A stretch of DNA of 64,000 nucleotides from Desulfosudaceae bacterium (GTDB lineage: Bacteria; Desulfobacterota; Desulfobacteria; Desulfobacterales; Desulfosudaceae), in assembly GCA_963674745.2 (NCBI GenBank), contig CAXXDV010000003.1, positions 928,001-992,000 on the forward strand, read 5' to 3'. The notes beneath the pieces were generated by a model. That model did not search any database. It was not told where the DNA came from and was given only the letters and a program-made list of their open reading frames with translations. Position numbers and translations under genes: made by a program. Below are positions 34,704 to 56,332 of the stretch, piece by piece (the first letter of the stretch is position 1; every line of letters starts with the position of its first letter).

Positions 34704-37340
34704 ATGAAGAAAATTCTCTCCGTAAGTGTAGATACGCTTATACTTAACAAAATCTCCAGCCTGCTTCGAAAACACGAACACGCCAGTAATTATGATATCC
34801 TTACGGCGGAAAGCCTTCAGGAAGCTGATACCACACTCAAAAAGACAAAAATCGATATTGTTATTATCGACTTGTTCGCCCCCTCCACGAGCGACCTTGA
34901 ATTACTCAAAACGATCACGAAAAATAACGCTCGTATTCCTTTTATCGTTATGACCTTCTTTGAATCCGGTGAGATTGAGTCCACCATCAGGTCCATTCGC
35001 GAAATTCGATACTTTGAAAAGCCGGTCGATTTTACGGCCCTGACAGACAAAGTGGTGCAGGAAATGGCAGGTGGCGTCGGCGGCGTCTTTCATGGCATCA
35101 GCCTGGCTTCTTTTCTCCAGATGTCGGAAATCGAAGGCGCCTCCTGTACGCTGAAGGTAAAAGCAGGGGGACAGGAAGACGGTCGACTCTATTTGCAAAA
35201 CGGCACCCTGGTAGCGGCGGCGGCCGGGGCCGTCAGCGGAGAAGAAGCTGTATACGAAATACTCGGCTGGAACAGGCCGACGATCGAGATTGATTATCCC
35301 GACCTGAACATTTCCAGGGAAATTGATCAGCCGCTGATGCACCTCCTGATGGAAATGACGAGACGACAAGATGCAAAAGTCGGTAAGGTCGTACACCAAT
35401 CCGGTAAGATCAGTTACAGACCGGTGCAGGACGGAGATACGGCAGATACCCGGGAAGACACCGAAAAAATGCAGGCTGTCATCGAAAAACAGAAAGCCGC
35501 TGCCGAGAAAAAAAAGGCTGCTGCTCAAAAAAAGCAGGCTGACATCCAAAAACAGAAAGCCGCTGCCGAGAAAAAGAAGGCTGCTGCTGAAAAAAATCAG
35601 GCTGACATCCAAAAACAGAAGGCCGCTGCTGAAAAAGAAAAAGTCGCCCTCGAAAAACAGAAAGCCGCTGCCGAGAAAAAGAAGGCTGCTGCTGAAAAAA
35701 ATCAGGCTGACATCCAAAAACAGAAAGCCGCTGCCGAGAAAAAGAAGGCCGCTGCCCCCCGGGAGGCGCAGGAAAGCCCGCCCGCTGAGCCGGCTGAAAA
35801 AACCAGGGCCGAATCGGATAAAGCCCCGGCTGCCGATGAACCTCGGGCCACCGGGACCATCATTCCGTGGTGGAAAAGCAAAAAGTTTCGCTATAGCATC
35901 ATTGCGGGAATATCGGGTTTCGTCTGTCTGGGGCTTCTTGCCTTTTTCTTTTCGAGCTCTGGCGAACAATCCCCCGGTGAAGATGCCGTCAAACCGTTGA
36001 AGACCGTCGAGGCGGTACGGGGCAAGCTTCCCGTCGCGAATGCCGGCAATACGGATCGATCCCCCGGTAAAGATGCCGTCAAACCCTTGACTTCAGGGAC
36101 CGCCGAGACGGCACGGGTCAAGCTTCCCGTCGATAATACCGTCACTGCGGGACGTTTCTATGTAAACACAAATTATAAAGACGCTACCATTACGCTTCCT
36201 GACATCAAACAAGAATACAGCCCCGGCATGCGGCTGGCACCGGGTAAATATAAAGTAATCGCAACGGCACCAAACCACGCGCCAATAGAAAAAACCGCTA
36301 TTGTCTCAGCAGGAACTGACAACAAAGTCGACATAGCGTTTCCCCCTGATCTGGGTACCCTCTATGTTACTACCAAACCATCCGGTGCCGTTATCAAAAT
36401 AATGAATTATGATAAGGAATTTCAACAGGGGATAGAACTACCGGCAGGTAAGTACCAGATTGACGCTGAATCAGGCTTTGCCAGGGCAAGTGAATGGGTC
36501 ACCGTTTCAGCTAATGAGAAAAACAGCGTATCCTTATCGTTAACCCAGGCTGAAGTCTTTACAAACTCCCTGGGTATGAACTTCAAATGGATCGGTCCCG
36601 GAAGTTTTACGATTGGCAGCCCGACAACTGAAACCGGGCGTGCCATGGACGAATATCAGCACAAGGTTACCATAAGCAAGGGGTTCTACATTCAAACCAC
36701 AGAGGTAACCCAGAAACAGTGGGCCAGGCTGATGGGCAACAATCCATCTTATTTTACAGGTTGCGGCGATAACTGCCCTGTGGAAAATATTTCCTGGCTG
36801 GGTGCCCAGGAATTCATAAAAAAATTAAAAGCAAAATATAACATGAATTACGATATGCCCACGGAAGCGGAGTGGGAATATGCCTGCCGCGCCGGAAGCA
36901 AAACAGCCATATATACCGGCCCCCTGAGCATCTTGAGTCTTAATACCGGCGTGGAATTGGAGCCTATTGCCTGGTATGGCGGAAATAGCTGTGCGGATTA
37001 CTCCGGGGCCGATGACTGCTCCGACCGAAAAGGTGCGAAGATCAAATGCCAGCGCTGCGGAACACAACCTGTTGGAACGAAAAAACCCAATGCCTGGGGT
37101 TTATATGATATGCTGGGCAATGTCTGGGAATGGTGTTCAGACTGGTATAACAATTTTCCCGGCGGTTATAATACAGGCCCTGTTACAGATCCCAGGGGAC
37201 CGTCCGTAGGCACACACCGCATAATCAGGGGGGGGGGCTGGTTTAGCGGGGCTGCACAATGCCGGTCAGCATTCCATGACAGGAGTGCGCCCACCGCTAC
37301 GAGTAAGGGCGTGGGGCTTCGGGTAATTATACGCGACTAA
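34704..37340 (+). CDS. Receiver + DUF4388/PATAN + coiled-coil repeat + TM + PEGA-like + FGE-sulfatase (SUMF1) domain protein
   Basis: IVIID...FEKPVD receiver; GISLASFLQM...GRLYLQNG; TEVTQKQW, PTEAEWEYACRAG, NAWGLYDMLGNVWEWC, RGGGW. Confidence 0.88.
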   Translation: MKKILSVSVDTLILNKISSLLRKHEHASNYDILTAESLQEADTTLKKTKIDIVIIDLFAPSTSDLELLKTITKNNARIPFIVMTFFESGEIESTIRSIREIRYFEKPVDFTALTDKVVQEMAGGVGGVFHGISLASFLQMSEIEGASCTLKVKAGGQEDGRLYLQNGTLVAAAAGAVSGEEAVYEILGWNRPTIEIDYPDLNISREIDQPLMHLLMEMTRRQDAKVGKVVHQSGKISYRPVQDGDTADTREDTEKMQAVIEKQKAAAEKKKAAAQKKQADIQKQKAAAEKKKAAAEKNQADIQKQKAAAEKEKVALEKQKAAAEKKKAAAEKNQADIQKQKAAAEKKKAAAPREAQESPPAEPAEKTRAESDKAPAADEPRATGTIIPWWKSKKFRYSIIAGISGFVCLGLLAFFFSSSGEQSPGEDAVKPLKTVEAVRGKLPVANAGNTDRSPGKDAVKPLTSGTAETARVKLPVDNTVTAGRFYVNTNYKDATITLPDIKQEYSPGMRLAPGKYKVIATAPNHAPIEKTAIVSAGTDNKVDIAFPPDLGTLYVTTKPSGAVIKIMNYDKEFQQGIELPAGKYQIDAESGFARASEWVTVSANEKNSVSLSLTQAEVFTNSLGMNFKWIGPGSFTIGSPTTETGRAMDEYQHKVTISKGFYIQTTEVTQKQWARLMGNNPSYFTGCGDNCPVENISWLGAQEFIKKLKAKYNMNYDMPTEAEWEYACRAGSKTAIYTGPLSILSLNTGVELEPIAWYGGNSCADYSGADDCSDRKGAKIKCQRCGTQPVGTKKPNAWGLYDMLGNVWEWCSDWYNNFPGGYNTGPVTDPRGPSVGTHRIIRGGGWFSGAAQCRSAFHDRSAPTATSKGVGLRVIIRD
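35485..35755 (+). repeat. Intragenic 21-nt (heptad) tandem repeats with a 63-nt higher-order unit
   Basis: Encodes KQKAAAE/KKKAAAE/KNQADIQ repeats. Confidence 0.9.
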
Positions 37341-37341
37341 A

Positions 37342-39135
37342 CTAATACATGTAAGGATCTCCTGGATATGCCCTGAAACTGTATTTCATGGGTCCGGACA
37401 TCTTTTTGGTAGACATGAAAGAAAGTATGCCTCCCAGGGCATTCATGCTTTTCATCTTCGGAATTACTGTCTCTCCCTCGAGCACCGCTTTTCCTGAGCA
37501 AAAATCAGCAACAGGACCTTTAAAAAATAGTTTCATCTCAACCGGGGTCGAGGTCCGTGCTTTTCCCCACCATTTTTTCACATGAAAATGGCTCTTTACG
37601 GTACCATTTATCGTAAAGGTTCCTATGCTGTTTAAAAATAAAGAACCTGTAAACGGCTCAAGCTGTTCCATCCTGAAACCTACTTTCATGGGAAGAAAGC
37701 CGACGCGTACTTTAACCTTGAATGGCGGCATATCAATACTGCCGTTTTCAAGTCTCTTGGAAGACAAATTTGCTCCGATAGACATTGTGGTTGTGTCCGG
37801 CAGTTTGACTTCCTGTTTCAAATTTTCAATCTCAACCATCCCGTCAACGTGCCAGTCTTTCATCTTGATCACAAAATCATCTTCCGGATTCTGTGCGTCA
37901 GATACAGGACGAACTCCGGTGCTGCACAATGTCGTCTCATCCAGAGGCGCGCCGTCAAATCTGTCTTTCATCCAGGCTATTGCGTATGGTGCCACCTGGA
38001 ACAGCGGGACCATATGCTCGGCCGTCGGAAACACCTGGAAAGAAACATCCATACCCATTTCGCAATAAGTCTCTTTTAAATCCAGGGCAGGATCCAGAGG
38101 AGAAAACGGATCGGCTGTCCCGTGATACAAATAAACAGGCGCGTTAATCGGGCTTTTGCCGAGCTTCATGCTCTCGACAATCGCGGACACCTCGGGGAAC
38201 ATTGTAATTAAATCATCTATATTAAGTTGATCATTTGTTAGGTCTTTGATTTTGATATGCATATATATTTTCAGCCCATCCCACACACACACATCCCTTG
38301 CGCCTTCAAAGGCTGCAAACCCCCCCTCATTTACAAGATCATACAACGGCACTTCATTGGGATACTGGTAATACAGCCCGGCTAAAAATGAAAATAAACA
38401 GACGGCTCCCGGTCCGCCGTCCATGACTCTTCCCACCTCTATGAGATCACAGGGAATACCGCCCGCGATAACACCAACCAGATTCAAATCAGGCATATAA
38501 GATGGTTGAAGCTGGCCCGCCCACGCTGCGGTCTGCGCGCCCACGTCGTATCCCCAGGTAACGACTTTGTCGCTAAAGCTGAACGGGGAGTACGGAATCT
38601 GCCTTGAAGCCTTAACGATATCCAATACGGCATAACCCTGGTTATAACCGTTACAGTATGATGGATACGCACCAGTGGTATATCCGGGATAATCACTTAT
38701 TACCACGGCGTAACCTGCTTTCAGAATGGCTATAATATTGTCGTTTTCCCAGTAGTTACCTGACCTGAGCTGAAAAGAAGGAGCGCATTTCTGACCAAGC
38801 CCTTGAGTGGAGGGGCAATAAATAACCACGTTCCCATGATCCCAGGCCACAGGCGCTATGACGGTACCTGTCACGGCGTTTGCCCTGCCAAGTGCATCAG
38901 AAGACCGATACATTATCTGCCATGAATCAAACGGGGGGGCTTCAGGAATCACGACCTTTGCTTTTATGGATCTGATAAGGTCACCATGAACGCCTGCCGG
39001 CAGTGGAGACGGCTCTGTGTAAAAAGACTTTACAGAGAAGCCCTTTTGGGATTCAGCAATGGCCGGAGCGGCGAACAGCAATGCCGATATTATTATCAAT
39101 AACAGGACCGCCGGAGACCTACTGATTCTTATCAT
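37342..39135 (-). CDS. Secretory lipase family (LIP-type) paralog 1, nucleophile motif GYDVG
   Basis: Signal peptide, YRSSD...VTGTV, CAPS, DYPGY, YLYHGTAD, AEH; 597 aa like the other two paralogs. Confidence 0.88.
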   Translation of the reverse strand: MIRISRSPAVLLLIIISALLFAAPAIAESQKGFSVKSFYTEPSPLPAGVHGDLIRSIKAKVVIPEAPPFDSWQIMYRSSDALGRANAVTGTVIAPVAWDHGNVVIYCPSTQGLGQKCAPSFQLRSGNYWENDNIIAILKAGYAVVISDYPGYTTGAYPSYCNGYNQGYAVLDIVKASRQIPYSPFSFSDKVVTWGYDVGAQTAAWAGQLQPSYMPDLNLVGVIAGGIPCDLIEVGRVMDGGPGAVCLFSFLAGLYYQYPNEVPLYDLVNEGGFAAFEGARDVCVWDGLKIYMHIKIKDLTNDQLNIDDLITMFPEVSAIVESMKLGKSPINAPVYLYHGTADPFSPLDPALDLKETYCEMGMDVSFQVFPTAEHMVPLFQVAPYAIAWMKDRFDGAPLDETTLCSTGVRPVSDAQNPEDDFVIKMKDWHVDGMVEIENLKQEVKLPDTTTMSIGANLSSKRLENGSIDMPPFKVKVRVGFLPMKVGFRMEQLEPFTGSLFLNSIGTFTINGTVKSHFHVKKWWGKARTSTPVEMKLFFKGPVADFCSGKAVLEGETVIPKMKSMNALGGILSFMSTKKMSGPMKYSFRAYPGDPYMY

Positions 39136-39179: not shown

Positions 39180-40973
39180 TTAGTACATATAAGGCTCTGT
39201 TGGATATGCCCTGAAGCGGTATTTCATGGGCCCGGACATCATTCTAGTGGACATGAAAGAAAGAATGCCTCCCAGAAAATTCATGCTTTTCATCTTCGGA
39301 ATTACGGCCTCGCCCTCAATCACCACGTTTCCTGAGCAAAAATCAGCAACAGAACCTTCATAAAACAGTTTAATCTCAACCGGGGTCGAGGTACGTGCTT
39401 TTCCCCAGAATTTTTTCACATGAAGATGGCTCTTAGCGACACCATTTATCGTCATGATTCCGTCGCTGCTTAAGTATATAGAACCCCTAATCGGCCCAAC
39501 CTGTTCCATCCTGGTGCTTACTTTCAGTGGAAGAAAGCCGACACGTGTTTTAACCTTAAATGGAGGCACATCAATAGTGCCGTTTTCAAGTCTCTTTGAA
39601 GACATATTTGCGCCAACAGACATTGTGGTTGTTTCCGGCAGTTTGATTTCCTGCTTCATCTTTACAATCTCAACCATCCCGTCAACGTGCCAGTTTTCCA
39701 TTTTAATCACAAAATCATCATCCGGATTCTGTGCGTCAGATAACGGACGGGGTCGGGTGCTGCACAATGTCGCCTCATCCAAAGGCGCGCCGTCAAATCT
39801 GTCTTTCATCCAGGCTATCGCGTATGGGGTTACCTGAAACACCGGGATAATATGCTCGGCCGTGGGAAACACCTGGAAACAAACATCCATACCCATTTCA
39901 CAATAAGCCTCTTTTAGAGCCAGGGACTGCTCCATCGGAACAAACGCATCAGCTGATCCGTGATACAAATAAACAGGCGCGTTAATCGGGCTTTTACCGA
40001 GCTTCATGCTCTCGGAAATTGCGGCCACCTTGGGGAACTTTTTAATTAAATCTTCTATCGTAAGGTGATCCCTTGTTAAATCTTTGGTTCCGACACCCAT
40101 ATATATTTTCACCCCATCCCATATACATATATCCATTGCGCCTTCAAAGGCCGCACGCCCCCCCTTAGTTACAAGATCCAGCAACGGAACTTCATTGGGA
40201 TACTGGTAATACAGCCCGGCTAAATATGCCAGCAGATAAACGGCGCCCGGTCCGCCGTCCTGGAGTATTTGCGCATTTATGAGATCAGCGGGAACACCGC
40301 CCGCTATAACACCAACCAAATTCAAATCAGGCATATAAGACGGCTGAAGCTGGCCCGCCCACGGTGCGGCCTGCCCGCCCTGGGAGTATCCCCAGATAAC
40401 GACTTTGTCGCTATAGCTGAATGGGGAGTAAGGAATCTGTCTTGACGCCTTAACGATATCCAGTGCGGCATAACCCTCGTTATAACCGTTAAGGAATGAT
40501 GGATACATACCGTTGGTATATCCGGGATAATCGGTTATTAACACGGCGTAACCCGCATTAAGAAGGGATATAATATTTTCGTTTTCCCAGTAGTTACCTG
40601 CCCTGAGCTGAAAAGAAGGAGCGCATTTCTGAGAAAGCCCTTGAGCGACGGCGCAATAGATAACCACGTTCCCATGATCCCAGGCCTCAGGCACTATGAC
40701 GGAACCTGTCACGGCGTTTGGCCTGCCAAGATAATCAGAAGACCGATACATTACCTGCCATGAATCATACGGGGGGGCTCCAGGAATCACGACCTTTGCT
40801 TTTATGGATCTGATAAGGTCACCATGAACGCCTGCCGGTAGTGGAGACGGCTCTGTGTAAAAAGACTTCACAGAGAAGCCCTTTTGGGATTCAGCAATGG
40901 CCGGAGCGGTGAACAGCAATGCCGATATCATTATTAGTAACAGGACCGCCGGAGACCTACTGATTTTTACCAT
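39180..40973 (-). CDS. Secretory lipase family (LIP-type) paralog 2
   Basis: WGYSQGG nucleophile elbow, YHGSAD, AEH; signal peptide. Confidence 0.92.
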   Translation of the reverse strand: MVKISRSPAVLLLIMISALLFTAPAIAESQKGFSVKSFYTEPSPLPAGVHGDLIRSIKAKVVIPGAPPYDSWQVMYRSSDYLGRPNAVTGSVIVPEAWDHGNVVIYCAVAQGLSQKCAPSFQLRAGNYWENENIISLLNAGYAVLITDYPGYTNGMYPSFLNGYNEGYAALDIVKASRQIPYSPFSYSDKVVIWGYSQGGQAAPWAGQLQPSYMPDLNLVGVIAGGVPADLINAQILQDGGPGAVYLLAYLAGLYYQYPNEVPLLDLVTKGGRAAFEGAMDICIWDGVKIYMGVGTKDLTRDHLTIEDLIKKFPKVAAISESMKLGKSPINAPVYLYHGSADAFVPMEQSLALKEAYCEMGMDVCFQVFPTAEHIIPVFQVTPYAIAWMKDRFDGAPLDEATLCSTRPRPLSDAQNPDDDFVIKMENWHVDGMVEIVKMKQEIKLPETTTMSVGANMSSKRLENGTIDVPPFKVKTRVGFLPLKVSTRMEQVGPIRGSIYLSSDGIMTINGVAKSHLHVKKFWGKARTSTPVEIKLFYEGSVADFCSGNVVIEGEAVIPKMKSMNFLGGILSFMSTRMMSGPMKYRFRAYPTEPYMY

Positions 40974-44267: not shown

Positions 44268-45524
44268 CTAGTGACCTTGCCGTAAAAGCGCTTCAAGCAT
44301 TTTGTCCGCCCGGTTTTTTATGGTTTCATGAAGTAATGTGGCCACCGATTCGTTGTATTCTCTAGTCTGTGCCTGAACCTCGCCGAGCTTGTTCAGAACA
44401 CGACGGCAGCTTTCCGCCATTCGTTCCCGTATCACCGGCCAACCCAGTCCGGTCTTTTTGGCCATCTTCTTCCAGTCACCAATCGTGAAGGCATTGACTG
44501 AGTCGCAGCCGCCGATCTTCATCGCGAGATTCCTGGAAAGGTTAGGCCAGGCAAGTGTGCAGACAAGATCATAATAGGGAGACAACCGTCGTTCGCCACC
44601 GGCATACAATAATGCGAAGTTCTTGCCATGCGCATCGGCATTGCCGATTAATACATTGAAAATCAGTCCGTTGATGAAGTCGGGGATATCAAGAACAGGC
44701 GCAGTGGACCAGTCCCGAAGCAGAGAAATGCACTCGCCGAGCGTCGGGCCTCCCTCTGCCTGGTACTTTCGCTCCGGCGGAAATCCCAGTGCCTGGCAGA
44801 AGTCCTCCTGGTGGAGTCGGGTCGTATGGCCGGCTTCATCGGTTGTCCGGTCATATCGTTGAACCAGAAGGCACTGTTTTCTTCCGATCAAACGATATTC
44901 GGTATCGGGTGCGTTCAAGCCGACTGCCTGAGCCAGCGTCATGCAGAAAAGTTCGTTGACGGCCAGTCCGGCAAAGCGATCCGGTTCCGGTTTCAGTATG
45001 TGGGTGCTGGGCGTATCACCAAGAGGCAGACAGATACCGTTCTGATGAACGATAACCGGCAGCTTGTCCTGGGCTCCGGCGAGTGAGAGGCGCAGTCCCT
45101 CCACACCGGCCATTAAGGGCCGATCAGGCAATTCGGCGATGAGCTTTTGCAACTCCGGTTCGGTCAGTTCGCGGTGTCGGGCGTTCTTCGGATCCGTCGG
45201 GGAAATGCCTTCGGGAAGCAGACTGACAGCGCCGGCGCACTCTCCGCCTATTCGCTCCAGCATGGCAAAGTCATTGGTGCGGCTGATTCCAAGGATCTCG
45301 GCTATCTTTTCTCGCGGGCCCTCTTCAGGCAGTATGCCGGCAAAGAAAGGCCTGGCCTTTTTTCCCGGGAACACCTCGCTTTGGAGTGGCAGTGAACGGG
45401 AGAGGGGTATGGCATTCGGCTTTTCAAGCCATGCCTGATCATAGGTGAATTGCAGCAAGCCGCTATCATCTTGTTGGAGGCTTCCGACCCTCTCGTTGTT
45501 CAGATAAACGATCAGGTTATTCAT
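44268..45524 (-). CDS. hipA: HipA family toxin (Ser/Thr kinase)
   Basis: LPEEGPRE, GGECAGAV, SLAGAQDK, HILKP, HQEDFCQALG, GNADAHGKN, LSPYYD. Confidence 0.95.
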   Translation of the reverse strand: MNNLIVYLNNERVGSLQQDDSGLLQFTYDQAWLEKPNAIPLSRSLPLQSEVFPGKKARPFFAGILPEEGPREKIAEILGISRTNDFAMLERIGGECAGAVSLLPEGISPTDPKNARHRELTEPELQKLIAELPDRPLMAGVEGLRLSLAGAQDKLPVIVHQNGICLPLGDTPSTHILKPEPDRFAGLAVNELFCMTLAQAVGLNAPDTEYRLIGRKQCLLVQRYDRTTDEAGHTTRLHQEDFCQALGFPPERKYQAEGGPTLGECISLLRDWSTAPVLDIPDFINGLIFNVLIGNADAHGKNFALLYAGGERRLSPYYDLVCTLAWPNLSRNLAMKIGGCDSVNAFTIGDWKKMAKKTGLGWPVIRERMAESCRRVLNKLGEVQAQTREYNESVATLLHETIKNRADKMLEALLRQGH

Positions 45525-45742
45525 AGCGTTTTGCCTTGGCCGGTAATCTGGAGTTTGAGGCCCAGCGCCTGGAGAACCTGCAGGATTTTTCCGATTTGGC
45601 AAGTCGGCTTGCCGTTTTCAAGATCACTAATGAAGCGCAGACCCGTCCCGCAGGTCAACGCCAGGTCCTTCTGGGTGACTTTCAATTCTCTGCGCCTGGC
45701 ACGAATAGCAGCGCCAAGCTGTTCTGGATTTATAATATTCAT
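45521..45742 (-). CDS. hipB: HipB-like XRE family antitoxin
   Basis: IRARRRELKVTQKDLALTCGTGLRFISDLENGK HTH; overlaps the hipA start. Confidence 0.92.
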   Translation of the reverse strand: MNIINPEQLGAAIRARRRELKVTQKDLALTCGTGLRFISDLENGKPTCQIGKILQVLQALGLKLQITGQGKTL

Positions 45743-45743
45743 G

Positions 45744-45856
45744 TTACCGATCGGGAATATATCGCCCTGTGAAGTGGTTGTCAAGGAAAATATTACCGAA
45801 CGGTAATATAGTTTATTGCATAAACTCTTTTGATTATAAAAATTACCGATCGGGAA
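45744..45856 (-). promoter_or_regulatory. hipBA promoter with three palindromic operators
   Basis: TTACCGATCGGGAA 45744-45757, TTACCGAACGGTAA 45793-45806, TTACCGATCGGGAA 45843-45856; TTGACA-17-TATATT on the minus strand (45784 to 45756). Confidence 0.85.
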
Positions 45857-45878
45857 TATTTAAGGTTTGTCCTGCCTG

Positions 45879-45982
45879 TCTCATGCAGGCACTTTTATAT
45901 GGACGGCAACCCTGTTCCCATAGGTGTTAAGCAGAGGATGCTGGGGCATGAAAACCGGAAGATCCTCAAGATTTCTTTGAAA
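45879..45982 (+). pseudogene. Remnant of a tyrosine recombinase C-terminus
   Basis: HAG..(frameshift)MDGNPVPIGVKQRMLGHENRKILKIS resembles integrase box II (HxxR/RH...LGH...Y). Confidence 0.55.
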
Positions 45983-46075
45983 GCAGGTTCCAACGTCTAT
46001 TTTCATTTAGCTGAAACGTCCCCCTGATTAAAGATACCACCATATTGCAATAAAGAGAGCTCCTGTTATCGCTCC

Positions 46076-46822
46076 TTAATGGATTCGATAAAGGTTCTTG
46101 AAAAACGATTTTAATATCCTGGTGGCCGGATCCAGTTGAAGATAAAAGCCTGCAACCCCCTTGTTGTTTTTACGATAGACTTTTGCCTCTTCTTCTGACC
46201 AGAAGAAAACACAAGCGGGTCAGTATTGATTCCTGATACCTTTTGCAAAAACCTTTATATCCTTGATTGGTAAAAATATTAAAGGGTTGCTTGTTTTATC
46301 GGTCACCTGAAAACGCATTGAATCATCTATTTTAATTTTTATGGGTTTTTGAGAATTGGCACAAGCCGATTCCACGGTCACCTGGACTTTATCTTCCATT
46401 AAATGCCCTCGCACGAAGGGCGCTCCAAAGGAGTCTGCCGCTCAAGGCGCCCAGACCTGCTCTCCGGTAGCATAGGTAACTTTGAATTTTGTTTCTTCAA
46501 CAGTAACCGGATAAGCCCAGGTAACATGTCCTGCCTGATTCCTTACGATCCACATCTGCATTTTTCCGATTTTCGCCAATATCTTATTTACCCTGTCTAT
46601 TGGCATGGATAGTTTTTGGGATATATGTTCCGGGGAAACAGGCTGCCTGAGACGGGTAAGTTCAAGAATCAGAAAATCCCTGACCTTGTAATGGCCTCTG
46701 GAATAGATTAATGGAAAGACAAACTTCATGATCAGGCCCTCAACCACACCGTTAAAAACGCAAAGCCAAAAAGGTATGGGGATCATTAATCCGCCGACAC
46801 CGAATAGTGTTTTTGTTTTCAT
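46076..46822 (-). CDS. MerB-like organomercurial lyase family protein with two in-frame UGA codons (candidate selenocysteines U127 and U201), 248 aa
   Basis: One frame through TGA 46442-46444 and TGA 46220-46222 to TAA 46076; AYP...VWAP-U-AAD, ESACANSQKPI, NQY-U-PACVFFWSEEEA match the MerB WCALD, SxC and FCxxVHFFAS segments; hairpins follow both TGAs; AAGGAGG RBS. Confidence 0.8.
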
Positions 46823-47113
46823 TAAAGGATCCTCCTTTTTGATGCAATTTTTATCCCGATTTTTCGTAATGGCAGGTGGCTACCTTTTAAAGCCATCATC
46901 CTTCCCAAGCTTAAGTTATAGGCCTGACCTTACACTTTTTCATTACCTCGTATAATCCACCCCAAAAAAAGCAAAATTTATACCATCATGTAAACTAAGT
47001 TTTTACAAAAAGTTATGTTAAAAAAAGCTGAAAGTGTTTATATGCTGACACATTTGTGTTAATATATAAACAAATTTTAGGGATAATCAAAAACAGTCAG
47101 GATCAAACAGGCT

Positions 47114-48433
47114 ATGATAACCAGACGCTTGGGCCCTATGGAAAAATCGCTCTGGCTGATAGACAGGGTCTGCCGCATCAACTTTGTCATGCACGCCGGC
47201 ATCCGCGGACCGCTGTCTCCCGAATCATTGCGCGCGGCTCTGGATTCTGTCCAGCAACGCCACCCCCTGCTTCGTGTGCGTATTGTGAGAAAAGGCTGGT
47301 CCGGACTTTGTTATGAAAGCAGCCATGTGCCGAGAATCCCCCTGCGGGTTGTGGACGGCCTGGAAGCATCCTGGGTGGCCGAGGCCGAATATGAGTGCAA
47401 TACTCTTTTCCCCACCGAACAGGGGCCGCTGGTGCGCTGCGTGCTTGTCCGGCATGAAGAAGAACGATCCACCCTGCTGGTTTCTTTTCATCACTCGATT
47501 GGTGACGGAATGTCCGGGGTGTATCTGATCCGGGATCTGCTTGACGCGGCCTCCGGAACCATCAGGGGAAAACATGACCGCCTGCCCGATCTTGATCTCA
47601 AAGAGCCAATGGAAGCGTACCTGCCCCCTGAGATGAAAGCCTGGCACGGCTGGTGGCGTTCCGGCCTTGTTCTTTGCCGGCTCATCGGTTCCCTGTTTCA
47701 AGGTGTCCCGGCAAGACCGAAACGGGATAGATGGGCTTTTCCGACAAAGAGAAACGCTTATATTGTTTCACACCAGTTGCCTCTAACAGTTGTTGAGCCC
47801 CTGCTCACAAGAGCACGAAAAGAAGGGACAACGGTTCACGGTGCCCTGACGGCAGCCTGCCTTTTTGCGATCAATAACGATCTTAATACCAGAAAAGACC
47901 GCCTGTTCATGCCATCAGCCGATACCAACATACGCAAGTATTTATCCCCTCCGGTTCACGACGATGTAGGACAGTTTGCCTCGGCCTGCACCTGTTTTTG
48001 CCGGGTGGGGGAAAGCAGGGACTTCTGGCAGGTTGCCCGGGATGTCGGGACTGCTCTCAGGGAAAGAATCCACCAGGGCGAACCCCTGGAATTCTCCATG
48101 TTGCTGGAAAAAGCAGACGTTCTGTTTCGCCTGTTTGGCACGGGAACGCCGGCCAGCCTGCTCCAGGCGTTTATGTATGAGCTGCTCGCTTCCGGTGCTA
48201 CAGACTTGAGCAACCTCGGCCTGGTTGACATGCCAGCGGATTATGACGGCCTTGCGGTCGAGACCATCGGTTTTGCCTCATCTTTATCGACCATGAGTTC
48301 CATGGCCTGCTTTGCGGCAACCATAAAAAACCGCCTGGCCTGGAACTTTGTCGGCATGGCGCCTGTTTATGATAAACGCCATACTGAAAAGATTGCCCGA
48401 AACGCCGTTGAAATATTAAAAACAAAGATATAA
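47114..48433 (+). CDS. Condensation-domain / CoA-dependent acyltransferase (PapA5/alcohol acetyltransferase-like)
   Basis: RHPLLR, FHHSIGDGMSG (HHxxxDG), TTVHGAL, LSNLG. Confidence 0.85.
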   Translation: MITRRLGPMEKSLWLIDRVCRINFVMHAGIRGPLSPESLRAALDSVQQRHPLLRVRIVRKGWSGLCYESSHVPRIPLRVVDGLEASWVAEAEYECNTLFPTEQGPLVRCVLVRHEEERSTLLVSFHHSIGDGMSGVYLIRDLLDAASGTIRGKHDRLPDLDLKEPMEAYLPPEMKAWHGWWRSGLVLCRLIGSLFQGVPARPKRDRWAFPTKRNAYIVSHQLPLTVVEPLLTRARKEGTTVHGALTAACLFAINNDLNTRKDRLFMPSADTNIRKYLSPPVHDDVGQFASACTCFCRVGESRDFWQVARDVGTALRERIHQGEPLEFSMLLEKADVLFRLFGTGTPASLLQAFMYELLASGATDLSNLGLVDMPADYDGLAVETIGFASSLSTMSSMACFAATIKNRLAWNFVGMAPVYDKRHTEKIARNAVEILKTKI

Positions 48434-49929: not shown

Positions 49930-51723
49930 TCAGTAAATATAAGGCTCTCTTGGATAAGCCCTGAAACTGTATTTCATGGGACCGGACATCATTCTGGTAG
50001 ACAGGAAAGAAACGATGCCTCCCAGCGCATTCATGCGCTTCATCTTCGGAATGACTGTCTCGCCCTCAAGCACCATTTTCCCTGAAGCGAAATCAGCAAC
50101 AGGACCGTTAAAAAACAGTTTCATCTCAACCGGGGTCGAGGTACGTGCTTTTCCCCACCATTTTTGTACATGAAAATGGCTCTTTATGACACCATCTATG
50201 GTAATGTTTCCCATGCTGTCTAAGCGTAAAGAACCCGTAAACGGCTCAAGCTGTTCCATCGTAAAGCCAACTTTCATTGGAAGAAAGCCGACACGTACTT
50301 TAACCTTGAATGGCGGCATATCAATACTGCCGTTTTCAAGTCTCAAAGAAGACACATTTGCGCCACAAGTCATTGTGGTTGTGTCCGGCAGTTTGACTTC
50401 CTGTTTCAAGTTCTCAATCTCAACCATCCCGTCAACGTGCCAGTTTTCCATTTTAATCACAAAATCATCTTCCGGCTTCTGTGCGTCAGATACAGGACGA
50501 TCTTTGGTGTTGCACAATGTCGTCTCATCCAAAGGCGCGCCGTCAAACCTGTCTTTCATCCAGGCTAACGCGTATGGTGCTACCTGAAACAACGGGATAA
50601 GATGCTCGGCCGTCGGAAACACCTGGAAAGAGACATTCATACCCATTTCACAATAATCCTCTTTTAGATCCAGGGCCTGATCCATAGGGATAAACGGATC
50701 AGCTGATCCGTGATACAAATAAACAGGTGCATTAATCGGGCTTTTGCCGAGCTTCATGCCTTCGACAATCCTGTACACTTTGGGGAACCCTGTAATTAAA
50801 TCGTCTATCGTAAGTCGATCCTTTGTGAGATCTTTGGTTTTGATATGCTTATATATTTTTAACCCGTCCCACAAACACACATCCATTGCGCCTTCAAGGG
50901 CCGCACGCCCCCCATCATTTACAAGATCAAACAACGGCACTTCATTGGGATACTGGTAATACAGTCCAACGTAATATGAGAATAAATAACAGGCCCCAGG
51001 TCCGCCGTCGAGTACTCTGGCCACATCTATGAGATCAGCGCTAACAGAGCCCGCTATGACACCAACCAAATTCAAATCAGGCATATAAGACGGCTGAAGC
51101 TGGCCCACCCACGGTGCGGTCTGTCCGCCCTGGGAGTATCCCCAGACAACGACTTTGTCGCTATAGCTGAATGGGGCGTAAGGAATCTGTCTTGAAGCCT
51201 TAACAATATCCAGTGCGGCATAACCCTGGTTATAACCGTTACAGTATGATGGATACCCGCCAGTGGTATATCCGGGATTATCGCTTATCAACACGGCGTA
51301 ACCCGCTTTAAGAATGGCTGTAATATTGTCGTTTTCCCAGTATTCACCTGCCCTGAGCTGAAAAGAAGGCGCGCATTTCTGAGCAAGCCCCTGAGTGGCG
51401 GCACAATAAATAACCACGTTCCCATGATCCCAGGCATCAGGCACGATGACGGTACCGGTCACGGCGTTCCCCCTGCCAACAGCAGTAGTAGACCGATACA
51501 TTATCTGCCATGAATCAAACGGGGGTGCTTCAGGAATCACGATCTTTACTTTTATGGATTTGATAAGATCACCATGAACCCCTGCCGGCAGGGGAGACGG
51601 CTCTGTGTATAAAGACTTCACAGATAAGCCTTTTTGGGATTCAGCAATGGCTGGAGCGGCGAGCAGCAATGCCGATATCATTATTAATAACAGGACCGCC
51701 GGAGATCTATTGATTTTTACCAT
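49930..51723 (-). CDS. Secretory lipase family (LIP-type) paralog 3
   Basis: WGYSQGG, YHGSAD, AEH; 597 aa, collinear with paralogs 1 and 2. Confidence 0.92.
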   Translation of the reverse strand: MVKINRSPAVLLLIMISALLLAAPAIAESQKGLSVKSLYTEPSPLPAGVHGDLIKSIKVKIVIPEAPPFDSWQIMYRSTTAVGRGNAVTGTVIVPDAWDHGNVVIYCAATQGLAQKCAPSFQLRAGEYWENDNITAILKAGYAVLISDNPGYTTGGYPSYCNGYNQGYAALDIVKASRQIPYAPFSYSDKVVVWGYSQGGQTAPWVGQLQPSYMPDLNLVGVIAGSVSADLIDVARVLDGGPGACYLFSYYVGLYYQYPNEVPLFDLVNDGGRAALEGAMDVCLWDGLKIYKHIKTKDLTKDRLTIDDLITGFPKVYRIVEGMKLGKSPINAPVYLYHGSADPFIPMDQALDLKEDYCEMGMNVSFQVFPTAEHLIPLFQVAPYALAWMKDRFDGAPLDETTLCNTKDRPVSDAQKPEDDFVIKMENWHVDGMVEIENLKQEVKLPDTTTMTCGANVSSLRLENGSIDMPPFKVKVRVGFLPMKVGFTMEQLEPFTGSLRLDSMGNITIDGVIKSHFHVQKWWGKARTSTPVEMKLFFNGPVADFASGKMVLEGETVIPKMKRMNALGGIVSFLSTRMMSGPMKYSFRAYPREPYIY

Positions 51724-51874: not shown

Positions 51875-52999
51875 TTACCTGCTGATCATTTCGCGAAAAG
51901 CCTGCAATCGGGTGGCCAGCTGGGCGGAACTGTTCGTGCCGTAATCTTTTTCCAGGTCCAGCACCGGAACACGGTTATCCGCCGAAAGAGACTCCTTTAG
52001 CATTTTGGTAAACCCGGCATAAGGGTCACAGAACTTTACCCGGGCCATAATAAGGCCCTGTATATTCATTTTATCAAGCACACCTGTCAGCAGTTCATAA
52101 TTTCTCTTAAAATCATTCATAACGGACGGGCATGAAATCATTTGGAAGTATCTTTCCGCAACAGCCGAAAGTGGATCGTCGGCATTTTCGTCAATCTCTC
52201 CATGGTAATGCCTGGCGCCAAAACAGATGTTGTCTGCCGCCACAAAAAACCCCTGGCCTTCGATGAATGAAACAAAATCCGGCGAATCACAGGCACCGCC
52301 CAATATCATGACGCGGGGCCGTTGTTCCAGGCCGCTGTCTGCTGCTGACAATTCACCAATCAGGCTTTCCAGATAAACATTGAACGTTTCTTTGCGAGCA
52401 GCCATGCCGGCCCGCACAATCCGCATATATTCCGCACCGCTGATAAGCGGCGGGTCGCTTTTGCGAAATTCGTTCAGGTTAGCCATGAGCGTCCGGGTTT
52501 TGTTGTATATCTTTATTGAGTCCCAAATGTCCGAATCTCTGATCAAAATTGAATATTGATCATGCAGATACTGAATCAGTTTCTTCATGCTGTTGATAAA
52601 CAGGTCCCGCCCGCCGGGAGTATTGGAGTGGTGCATCTCAAAATAATACAAGGGGATCTCCGATTTGTGGTACAGCAGGTCCGCAAGATTCAAATGGTGG
52701 TCACAGGCATTGGCCGCAATTACACCGTCGAAAAAGCCTGTTTGGTCTGTCAGCAGAATTTCCGCCGCAGCCTTGATATACGAACAGGTCATTTTATGGA
52801 GCTCGGCATCCGCGCAGGCCGTATCCGCAACCAAATTGGCGGTTATGCGCAAAGGCAGAATACCGGCGCTGTGGATGATTTCCTCCGGTATACCGGAACA
52901 GGTCAGGCCGACCACCGGTTTGCCACCTTTTTTCCATTGGCGGCTCCTGTCATTGTCCATTTTTTCCGAAAGTTCATTAAATACGGCAAGTGTATTCAT
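51875..52999 (-). CDS. 2-hydroxyacyl-CoA dehydratase / benzoyl-CoA reductase family subunit (HgdB/FldC/BcrC-like)
   Basis: PEEIIHSAG, CSYIK, NACD, CFGARH, KFCDP, TRLQAFREM. Confidence 0.9.
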   Translation of the reverse strand: MNTLAVFNELSEKMDNDRSRQWKKGGKPVVGLTCSGIPEEIIHSAGILPLRITANLVADTACADAELHKMTCSYIKAAAEILLTDQTGFFDGVIAANACDHHLNLADLLYHKSEIPLYYFEMHHSNTPGGRDLFINSMKKLIQYLHDQYSILIRDSDIWDSIKIYNKTRTLMANLNEFRKSDPPLISGAEYMRIVRAGMAARKETFNVYLESLIGELSAADSGLEQRPRVMILGGACDSPDFVSFIEGQGFFVAADNICFGARHYHGEIDENADDPLSAVAERYFQMISCPSVMNDFKRNYELLTGVLDKMNIQGLIMARVKFCDPYAGFTKMLKESLSADNRVPVLDLEKDYGTNSSAQLATRLQAFREMISR

Positions 53000-55060: not shown

Positions 55061-56332
55061 CTACTGCATTACTGTTGTGAAAAACGTTTCAACCTGTTCC
55101 CGCACTGACTCCCTGGGCGTGATTCTGTCATCATTGTAATCCAGCTCAAGCAGCAACAGCGGGGCATCATGTTTTTTGCATAAATACCGGGCAACCCCTT
55201 CCTTGCCGCAGATATTGCTGCAGCCCACATGCTGGGTCATGATGATGCAGTCACATTTGAAGTGCCGATATAAATCATGCATATAGTCCAGCATGTCCCT
55301 GGCGCCGAGCCTTAAAAGCGACATGGACAGGTCAAGTCCCTGCCAGGCATAACCTTCCATCATGGTATCCATATCAGTGGTGTCGATGGGCATGATTTTC
55401 GGCCCCATAATGGTATAGGCCACAACCGTTGCCCCGAATTTCTTTTCCATCCATGAAAACAGATCCGGGTCGTGGGCAGGCGGAATATGCGCCCAGAGAA
55501 CACGATGCTTTTCCTCGTATTTCGGCGGGGCATCTTCATCAATGATGCGTTTGATATCGGCCAGCATCTTTTCAAAAAAAACCGTCAGCCGGGGATTTCC
55601 GGCCTGGGTCATATACCCGACATGGGGGACCCGCCTGATGGCCGACCGCTGCGGCGCCGGCATCAGGGTATAGGCATCATGGATTTCCGTCATCAGTTCA
55701 AAGGCCCGGTTGGATTCCTCGACCACCTCGCGGAAGCGGTCGATATCAAACCGTTTCCCGGTGATGTCCTCCAAAAAAGGGATCAGGGTCGTTTTGATTT
55801 GATTGCCGAACCATTGCGCGGCGTCCTTTCCGTCCGCGTTGGTGCTCTCGATATAACACATCCTGTTTTTAAAAATTTTTTCGAGGATCGGATAAGCGGT
55901 CCGGGTGCCGTCGCATGGCATGGTAGTGGTTATATAATGGGCCTCGGCCGGGTACTCCCCGGAAAGCGCCGCGCCCACAAAAAACCGGTCTGTAGAGCAG
56001 AGGTCCGGCGGCAGGCCCGCTTCCTCGGCCAGCGCCAGGAACGCGTGTACAACGCTGATATTGGAACCGGAAAAGATAACGGGCTGGGCTTCCATACATA
56101 AGGGGGCGCAATCAAAGGCATACAGCAGTTGCGGAACAAGGGCGTTTTCAAACAAAACCAACGGTTTGTCCTTACTGTCCCAGGCAGCCAGAAGTTCCTC
56201 AAAAGGGCTGCCAAGGCATTCAATCACTTCCCCGAGAAACGCTTTTGGCCCGCCCTTTGCCTTAAAAATTTGCGCGCCCGGTTTGAATATGAATTCCAGA
56301 AGTTCTCTTGTGTGTTTAAATGCCTCTGACAT
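55061..56332 (-). CDS. 2-hydroxyacyl-CoA dehydratase family subunit (HgdA/FldB/BcrB-like)
   Basis: DLCSTD, PCDG, FLEDITGKRFD, HVGCS, ELDYNDDR. Confidence 0.88.
   Translation of the reverse strand: MSEAFKHTRELLEFIFKPGAQIFKAKGGPKAFLGEVIECLGSPFEELLAAWDSKDKPLVLFENALVPQLLYAFDCAPLCMEAQPVIFSGSNISVVHAFLALAEEAGLPPDLCSTDRFFVGAALSGEYPAEAHYITTTMPCDGTRTAYPILEKIFKNRMCYIESTNADGKDAAQWFGNQIKTTLIPFLEDITGKRFDIDRFREVVEESNRAFELMTEIHDAYTLMPAPQRSAIRRVPHVGYMTQAGNPRLTVFFEKMLADIKRIIDEDAPPKYEEKHRVLWAHIPPAHDPDLFSWMEKKFGATVVAYTIMGPKIMPIDTTDMDTMMEGYAWQGLDLSMSLLRLGARDMLDYMHDLYRHFKCDCIIMTQHVGCSNICGKEGVARYLCKKHDAPLLLLELDYNDDRITPRESVREQVETFFTTVMQ

Follow-up and report, generated by a model that had tools for sequence, protein, structure and literature searches.

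We analysed a stretch of 64,000 nucleotides (nt) from a Desulfosudaceae bacterium (GenBank assembly GCA_963674745.2, contig CAXXDV010000003.1), here called the window, in whose positions all gene and feature coordinates of the locus are given. The element in question is a gene for a protein with the MerB fold, which is read on the minus strand and is crossed by two in-frame TGA codons. The gene forms a single frame of 248 sense codons that is closed by TAA at 46076-46078, and it contains no other stops or frameshifts. Its three same-frame pieces are an open reading frame (ORF) at 46442..46822 (-) of 126 amino acids (aa), a second ORF at 46220..46414 (-) of 64 aa, and an unlisted piece at 46076..46219. 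A preliminary description of this DNA had joined the three pieces across the two TGA codons, and both its coordinates and the read-through peptides that it quoted agree with the translation of the frame. As it had anticipated, gene callers split the locus, and the deposited protein set contains only the 126-aa N-terminal piece. That the locus holds a real gene for a MerB-fold protein with two selenocysteine (Sec, U) residues is very well supported by the computations. The features of the gene, including the hairpins proposed as selenocysteine insertion sequence (SECIS) elements, are collected in Table 1.

Table 1. Features of the double-TGA gene and its proposed recoding signals, in window positions.
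Feature	Position	Strand	Basis
Whole gene, MerB-fold protein, two in-frame UGA	46076..46822	-	Frame, Pfam, model, fold search
Ribosome-binding site AGGAGG, 8 nt before the ATG at 46822	46831..46836	-	Sequence
UGA-1 (TGA-1), codon 127, proposed Sec at the MerB Cys96 place, motif U-A-A-D	46442..46444	-	Alignment; TGA in 29/29 and 80/80
Asp130 codon, at the MerB Asp99 (proton donor) place	46433..46435	-	Invariant in alignment A1
Small hairpin upstream of SECIS-1: CUCC-UUU-GGAG (window), CGC-NUUU-GCG (relatives)	46423..46433	-	Pairing, folding, RNAalifold
SECIS-1 apical hairpin GCCCUU-CGUGC-GAGGGC, 20 nt after UGA-1; encodes P135-F-V-R-G139	46405..46421	-	RNAalifold, frozen codons
Cys154 codon, at the MerB Cys117 place	46361..46363	-	Invariant in alignment A1
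UGA-2 (TGA-2), codon 201, proposed Sec at the MerB Cys159 place	46220..46222	-	Alignment, TGA conservation
SECIS-2, extended stem; encodes F-F-W-S-E-E	46183..46214	-	Folding energy, covariation, frozen TTC and GAA codons
SECIS-2 core UUCUUCU-GGUC-AGAAGAA, 12 nt after UGA-2	46190..46207	-	Sequence, RNAalifold

The read-through protein matches the Pfam MerB family (PF03243) with 59.6 bits, against a cut-off of 27, over residues 107-241, a region that spans both TGA codons. All 29 aligned members of the family (alignment A1, below) match it as well, and a six-frame Pfam MerB scan of the whole genome picked up the locus with two TGA inside. An AlphaFold2 model built from the 29-sequence alignment reached a mean predicted local distance difference test score of 90.9 and a predicted template-modelling score of 0.87. 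A Foldseek search of the PDB with this predicted model returned MerB or MerB2 at each of the top 11 ranks, with a best E of 4e-12 and target-normalised template-modelling scores of 0.63-0.82. In the alignment of the family profile with MerB PDB chains, U127, D130, C154 and U201 fall on C96, D99, C117 and C159, and site 1 reads yaaC-a-v-D over YAWCALD. The core claim of the preliminary description, a single MerB-like protein of 248 aa in which both catalytic Cys positions hold Sec candidates, is thus borne out by Pfam, fold and alignment. Its helix-turn-helix-like N-terminal region has to be read differently. Profile positions 52-228 align with MerB residues 29-186, so that the region corresponds to MerB's own N-terminal part. 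An extension of about 40 residues, specific to the family, comes before it. The same genome has a second MerB-like gene, on contig 1 (L001 1288..2232 (-), near 1352242-1352601), which encodes an uninterrupted protein of 314 aa. It scores 101.8 bits with Pfam MerB and lies below all NCBIfam cut-offs; it has Cys at both sites, a C-A-V-E motif in which Glu replaces Asp99, and a long C-terminal extension.

Both TGA codons are conserved in every relative that was read. A six-frame search with the read-through protein covered 60 related genomes and 400 genomes of the phylum (61 and 401 with the window's own genome). It identified 3 relatives in the former and 25 further ones in the latter, each of them with two TGAs in frame; for one, three are counted because its match extended into the TGA terminator. 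The 28 relatives that were extracted all have U at both aligned columns, and together with the window protein they make up alignment A1, where the window protein has an identity of 29-37% with the remaining members. Invariant in A1 are W102, A103, Y104, P105, T111, U127, D130, P135, F136, V137, G139, C154, P185, I196, U201, F207, S209, E210 and Y227. A pattern-plus-tblastn scan with one genome per species yielded 458 loci. The best 80 of these were kept, and TGA is present at both sites in all 80 (73 by script, 7 by eye). Taken together, all 108 relatives that were read keep both TGAs, at identities of 29-41%. Asp130 is present in 29/29 sequences of A1 and in 72/73 further loci. The preliminary description had expected homologues to carry TGA or Cys at the two sites and the segments after each TGA to be conserved; TGA does stand at both sites, with Cys in a minority of forms, and the downstream segments are indeed conserved in A1.

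Judged by the record titles of the best 80 of the 458 loci, the family occurs in Chloroflexota (many of them Anaerolineales), delta-proteobacterial and Thermodesulfobacteriota metagenome-assembled genomes, Acidobacteriota, Gemmatimonadota and Nitrospirota, and further in Bacteroidota, Spirochaetales, SAR324, Binatia, Rokubacteria and others. Two details of individual copies may be added. Residue 204 of the window protein, three after Sec201, is Cys (U-P-A-C); this U-x-x-C arrangement is found in 7/29 sequences, the others having Ser (21) or Asn (1). Cys204 is a possible resolving or hand-off thiol, which would not be a family trait. One genome has a full double-TGA copy and a second copy in two pieces with one TGA each (L047 G331:C7, L025 G331:C6), and the latter may be frameshifted.

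The two hairpins, GCCCTTCGTGCGAGGGC and TTCTTCTGGTCAGAAGAA, lie where the preliminary description had placed them. RNAalifold was run, unguided, on 48 nt from each TGA. After TGA-1 it gave a small hairpin followed by the consensus GCCCUU-CGUGC-AAGGGC, and after TGA-2 it gave UUCUUC[U/C]-GGUC-[A/G]GAAGAA with an outer stem. Codon choice within the hairpins is nearly frozen. For hairpin 1, the codons are CCC for P135 in 28/29, TTC for F136 in 29/29, GTG for V137 in 29/29, CAA for Q138 in 26/27 and GGG for G139 in 29/29; for hairpin 2, TTC for F206 in 27/27, TTC for F207 in 29/29 and GAA for E210 in 29/29. Outside the hairpins, residues that are just as conserved vary in their codons: P105 is CCG in 19, CCC in 8 and CCT in 2 sequences, F91 is TTC in 19 and TTT in 9, and G120 and V100 use all four codons. 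This internal control of synonymous codons is the strongest evidence for recoding signals.

Covariation is found at both sites. Loop 2 is closed by a U-A pair in 18 and by C-G in 11 of the 29 sequences, with no mismatch in any; the switch changes Trp to Arg (UGG to CGG) and is accompanied by a silent change from UCA to UCG. Hairpin 1 is paired in 93.2% of cells, with 92.3% for the helix with one added outer pair (columns 23-29/35-41). None of 500 shuffles reached the observed pairing or covariation, and slid controls were 32-55% paired. In the window copy, CGA replaces CAA with a U-G pair kept, and the small hairpin is re-registered to its window form (Table 1). Hairpin 2 of the window copy has a folding-energy z of -2.44, and 2/200 shuffles fold as well. 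A G-U step is present in the SelB-bound loops of Escherichia coli fdhF and Moorella fdhA, and a distance of 16-37 nt from UGA to loop is allowed in published models of bacterial SECIS elements. Both hairpins fit this step and this spacing. In the SECIS of the host's own selD, the apical loop starts with GG about 21 nt after the UGA, a spacing like that of the GGUC loop at site 2.

The machinery for Sec insertion, to which the preliminary description had pointed as a check, is present in the own genome, with selB (369.8 bits, cut-off 242), selA (607.9 bits, cut-off 268), selD (368.6 bits) and tRNA-Sec. The selD gene itself (L012, G000:C1:326061-326981 (-)) contains one TGA (GAGU-ASK) with a hairpin. 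A second selB-like gene (L004 G000:C3:1795409-1797292 (-)) falls just under the cut-off, with 239.9 against 242.25 bits. In the phylum sample, 23 of 25 carrier genomes have selA; selA is found in 371/401 genomes of the phylum, and its presence is therefore expected and not informative.

MerB-like selenoproteins had been said to be known already, and this is the case for one published protein, SaoL. SaoL, the selenocysteine-assisted organometallic lyase (NCBIfam NF040728), carries a single Sec, which forms a CU dipeptide at the Cys159 site, and its Cys96 site still has Cys; its gene is the marker of an SAO locus of nine genes (Haft and Gwadz, bioRxiv 10.1101/2022.07.06.499078). Two reviews list SaoL as the only such entry in their tables, the 2026 review with one Sec. 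Full-text literature searches of open papers, which do not extend to subscription-only papers and preprint supplements, found no double-Sec MerB and returned only the SaoL papers or irrelevant matches. The one passage found on two selenocysteines concerns the SaoP permease.

The window protein resembles SaoL in being a MerB-fold selenoprotein of anaerobes with Sec at the Cys159 position, the Sec of SaoL aligning with U201, and in having database entries that end at a UGA. It differs in having Sec instead of Cys at the Cys96 site, in lacking the CU dipeptide (YU in the window, FU in relatives), and in a gene without conserved neighbours in place of the SAO locus. One SaoL of the phylum reads ...MCAID...TCUNVMNFF, with U on U201 and Cys at site 1, whereas the double-Sec family reads U...[FY]U. 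With the SaoL model NF040728, the window protein scores 51.2 bits against a cut-off of 140, and the best E among the 29 members is 8.1e-17. With the MerB equivalogs NF009710 and NF033555 it scores 48.4 against 193 and 41.9 against 200 bits, and all 29 members likewise give weak, sub-cut-off matches to the three models. SaoL exceeds its cut-off in 3/401 genomes of the phylum, none of which carries the double-Sec gene. In a tree of 122 rows, from which 7 of the 80 loci and two SaoL loci were left out, SaoL stands on an end branch of 8.27. With MerB of plasmid R831b (PDB 3F0O/3F0P/1S6L) and MerB2 (5C17), the window protein shares the fold, the triad positions and the Cys117 position, at 16-21% identity in structural alignment. 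The geometry of the triad is the same and Asp is kept, but the ligand atoms differ, with Sec in place of both metal-binding Cys; the N-terminal extension and the absence of a mer operon are further differences. The window protein is thus a double-Sec MerB relative that is distinct from SaoL, the sole published MerB-like selenoprotein.

In protein databases, the family is largely truncated. A word-indexed protein search at near length found no relatives, and an exhaustive profile search was therefore needed. Among 1.84 billion cluster representatives, this search gave 1346 matches at E <= 0.001, of which 456 lie at or below 1e-10 and 76 at or below 1e-30. Of the best 150 representatives, 95 break off with the residue that directly precedes the U127 column. 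In 7 others, site 1 is Cys and the sequence stops at the residue ahead of the U201 column; in 3, site 1 is Ser and site 2 is Cys; and a few have lost both ligands (Gly/Glu forms). Cys counterparts thus exist for site 1 in the Cys/stop relatives, and for site 2 in the Ser/Cys relatives and in MerB itself. In the Cys/stop relatives (P0004, P0009, P0010, P0015) the stop at site 2 is presumably TGA; the Ser/Cys (P0002, P0005, P0060) and ligand-less (P0006, P0007) relatives complete a set of unannotated forms with one or no Sec. These forms match the family profile at E values of 1e-83 to 1e-33, have its N-terminal extension as well as its motifs WAYPVT and FFWSEE, and are spread among the U/U lineages in the tree. 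A few entries have W at the Sec sites (P0003, P0158, P0180, P0182, P0070, P0099). They are full-length proteins from metagenomes, presumably gene calls under a TGA=Trp code, and could seed wrong family models. The source-given names seen for the family are all 'hypothetical protein'.

The gene has neighbours of varied function, namely hipBA, a DrrA-like ABC-2 exporter, a divergently transcribed PapA-like acyltransferase, a GGDEF protein, lipases and HGD-D proteins. The hipB-hipA pair (44268..45784 (-); HipA_C 178 bits, Couple_hipA, HTH_3) lies directly downstream on the same strand. Three paralogous genes for 597-aa secretory lipases (LIP, 154-160 bits each) are found at 37342..39135, 39180..40973 and 49930..51723 (all -), two in tandem and the third 9 kb off. 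The HGD-D proteins (51875..52999 and 55061..56332 (-)) score 192.7 and 56.4 with a double-cubane anaerobic reductase model, against a cut-off of 350. Haft and Gwadz describe double-cubane proteins near SAO loci (bioRxiv 10.1101/2022.07.06.499078), and the parallel may be a coincidence. The gene at 34704..37340 (+) encodes a protein of 878 aa with response-regulator receiver, DUF4388, PEGA and FGE-sulfatase domains.

As had been claimed, there is no mer operon nearby: none of merA, merR, merT and merP was found among the 15 neighbours within about 12 kb, and none recurs in the 80 related loci. No Sao model is among the matches listed for the neighbours (for the ABC ATPase, among the best 25 of 183 matching families). 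The commonest neighbour, in 6/80 loci, is a Cys-free MerR-family regulator, upstream in five (L073, L108, L122, L124, L126) and downstream in one (L082), mostly in Syntrophales-like and Nitrospirota records; a similar MerR-family reading lies upstream in L029. A scan for promoters and terminators gave counts no higher than those of shuffled sequences (5 vs 3.7 and 2 vs 1.5). The gene and its intergenic regions coincide exactly with an AT-rich patch of 1.3 kb (about 45700..47200), with a GC content of 0.40-0.44 against 0.55-0.58 in the flanks. Phyla are intermixed in the tree. It does not place the window protein, for which a long-branch join with L018 is possible, and the ancestry of U/U versus Cys/Sec forms is not settled by it.

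Most of the carriers are anaerobes, among them Thermodesulfobacteriota, Anaerolineales and Syntrophales. A DNA pattern for the HgcA cap helix is found in 108/401 genomes of the phylum. It occurs in 13/26 carriers and 95/375 non-carriers, with a Fisher p of 0.010 that ignores kinship and is overstated because the genomes are related.

We favour the view, with a probability of about 0.75, that the locus is one gene for a 248-residue double-Sec protein of the MerB fold that catalyses metal-carbon protonolysis of the MerB type. The SelA/SelB/SelD/tRNA-Sec system would read both internal UGAs as Sec, each directed by its own hairpin in the coding sequence, 12-20 nt downstream, and from the sequence such insertion is very probable. 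Sec127, Asp130 and Sec201 would then occupy the places of Cys96, Asp99 and Cys159 of MerB, and this arrangement makes MerB-type protonolysis the most likely chemistry. The two selenolates would grip the metal of an organometal cation, Asp130 would protonate the leaving carbon, and the metal would be held on the Se-Se site until handed on. For lyase catalysis as such, the conserved residues put the odds slightly above even, and an organomercurial as the substrate is put forward only tentatively. Since there are no MerA, MerT or MerP and no SAO locus, the standalone gene does not belong to a classical resistance operon.

Several observations weigh against this view. By energy, hairpin 1 of the window copy is unremarkable (z -0.51, with 55/200 shuffles as good), and the minimum-energy fold is a different hairpin. 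The family-wide mean z is just -0.24 at site 1 and -1.59 at site 2, so that the case for hairpin 1 rests on family conservation. The hairpin that the preliminary description saw after each TGA is conserved across the family at both sites, but by energy alone only hairpin 2 stands out in the window copy. Across the family, pairing as good as that of hairpin 1 (92.9%) is seen for a longer alternative fold, which begins at the UGA and takes in the small hairpin; it leaves the frozen GTG-CAA-GGG codons unexplained. A search of Rfam with E up to 10 gave no match to a SECIS family, and only a chance match to a CRISPR repeat. Two of the 25 carrier genomes (G205, G416) have no selA match, both with selB over the cut-off. 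Clustering of ORFs in the 80 loci with 6-kb flanks and in the window gave no conserved partner. The own genome is without the HgcA pattern, and the preliminary remark on a lineage relevant to mercury cycling holds loosely, for the phylum and not for this genome. The gene has a GC content of 0.42 in a genome of 0.50, no relative was found in 12 genomes of its own family, and no other U/U branch of the tree is as long as that of the window copy, at 2.14 changes per column. The window copy may thus be a recent, fast-evolving import; together with the AT-rich patch, the missing family relatives and the long branch suggest lateral spread of the gene. Finally, two selenolates should bind Hg(II) very tightly. 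Turnover without a partner is therefore chemically questionable, and partner-assisted release or scavenging is a serious alternative.

It is possible, though on the unlikely side, that the same selenoprotein acts on something other than an organomercurial, either another soft organometal or organometalloid (with Sn, Pb, As, Se or Te carbon bonds) or a metal-bound intermediate of anaerobic metabolism. The lack of nearby mer genes and of a conserved partner in 80 loci would be in line with such a substrate, as would scores far under the cut-offs of the MerB equivalogs. PDB entries 5u79-5u7c are MerB, with the same chain sequence, and we take them to be complexes with organotin and organolead. 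The retained Cys/Asp/Cys geometry is, on the other hand, the one known for Hg-C protonolysis, and the HgcA motif is somewhat enriched among the carriers, with a p value inflated by kinship. For SaoL, Haft and Gwadz proposed action on such a metal-bound intermediate, and they argue that a substrate other than Hg is plausible where Sec occupies the metal site (bioRxiv 10.1101/2022.07.06.499078).

It is improbable that the protein is a non-catalytic bis-selenolate binder on a MerB scaffold, serving as a tight scavenger of metal (Hg, Cd, Cu, Ag) or selenium, as a chaperone or as a sensor. The gene stands alone, the ligand-less Gly/Glu relatives indicate that the scaffold tolerates other roles, the Cys-free MerR-family regulator adjoins some of the genes, and product release from two selenolates would be slow. 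Binding alone has no need of a proton donor, however, and Asp130 is almost invariant; the entire MerB core is also retained.

The two last alternatives have very little probability. A MerB-like gene killed by two nonsense mutations, to which the split gene calls and the divergent, AT-rich window copy might point, is contradicted by the same two TGAs in all relatives, the intact frame with its strong ribosome-binding site, the conserved residues after each TGA, and hairpins that are kept even where CAA changes to CGA and a U-G pair compensates. An ordinary SaoL or MerB-proper member, or a changed code with TGA read as Trp or Gly, would explain the weak matches to NF040728, NF009710 and NF033555 in 29/29 members and the database entries with W at both sites, but is contradicted: all scores are far under the cut-offs, SaoL has C...CU and is absent from carrier genomes, no Sao models are among the neighbour matches listed, and TGA is an ordinary terminator in 3/15 Pfam-supported neighbour genes and the next stop after the conserved C-terminus in 18/29 family genes (by a script that took TGA as a terminator).

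For annotation, the consequence is that at least 458 species-representative loci encode a relative, and that an entire enzyme family is invisible to protein-level surveys. For recoding, the gene offers two SECIS elements within 225 nt of a short bacterial gene, whose RNA folds seem to dictate the PFVQG and FF[WR]SEE motifs of the peptide. Enzymology would gain a natural metal-carbon lyase whose two metal ligands are both selenium, alongside Cys/Sec and Ser/Cys relatives with which to compare it. To our knowledge, methylmercury is degraded in habitats of anaerobes without a known mer system. It is doubtful, but worth considering, that the double-Sec family is the missing enzyme of such mer-independent methylmercury breakdown in anoxic sediments and soils; for mercury and organometal cycling, the gene is a concrete, clonable candidate. 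If this reading is true, sulfate reducers, syntrophs, Anaerolineae and others would possess a standalone bis-selenolate lyase that cleaves Hg-C or related metal-carbon bonds. Selenium would give it rates or affinities at trace substrate beyond those of a Cys enzyme, and the metal may end as an inert Hg-Se species instead of Hg(0).

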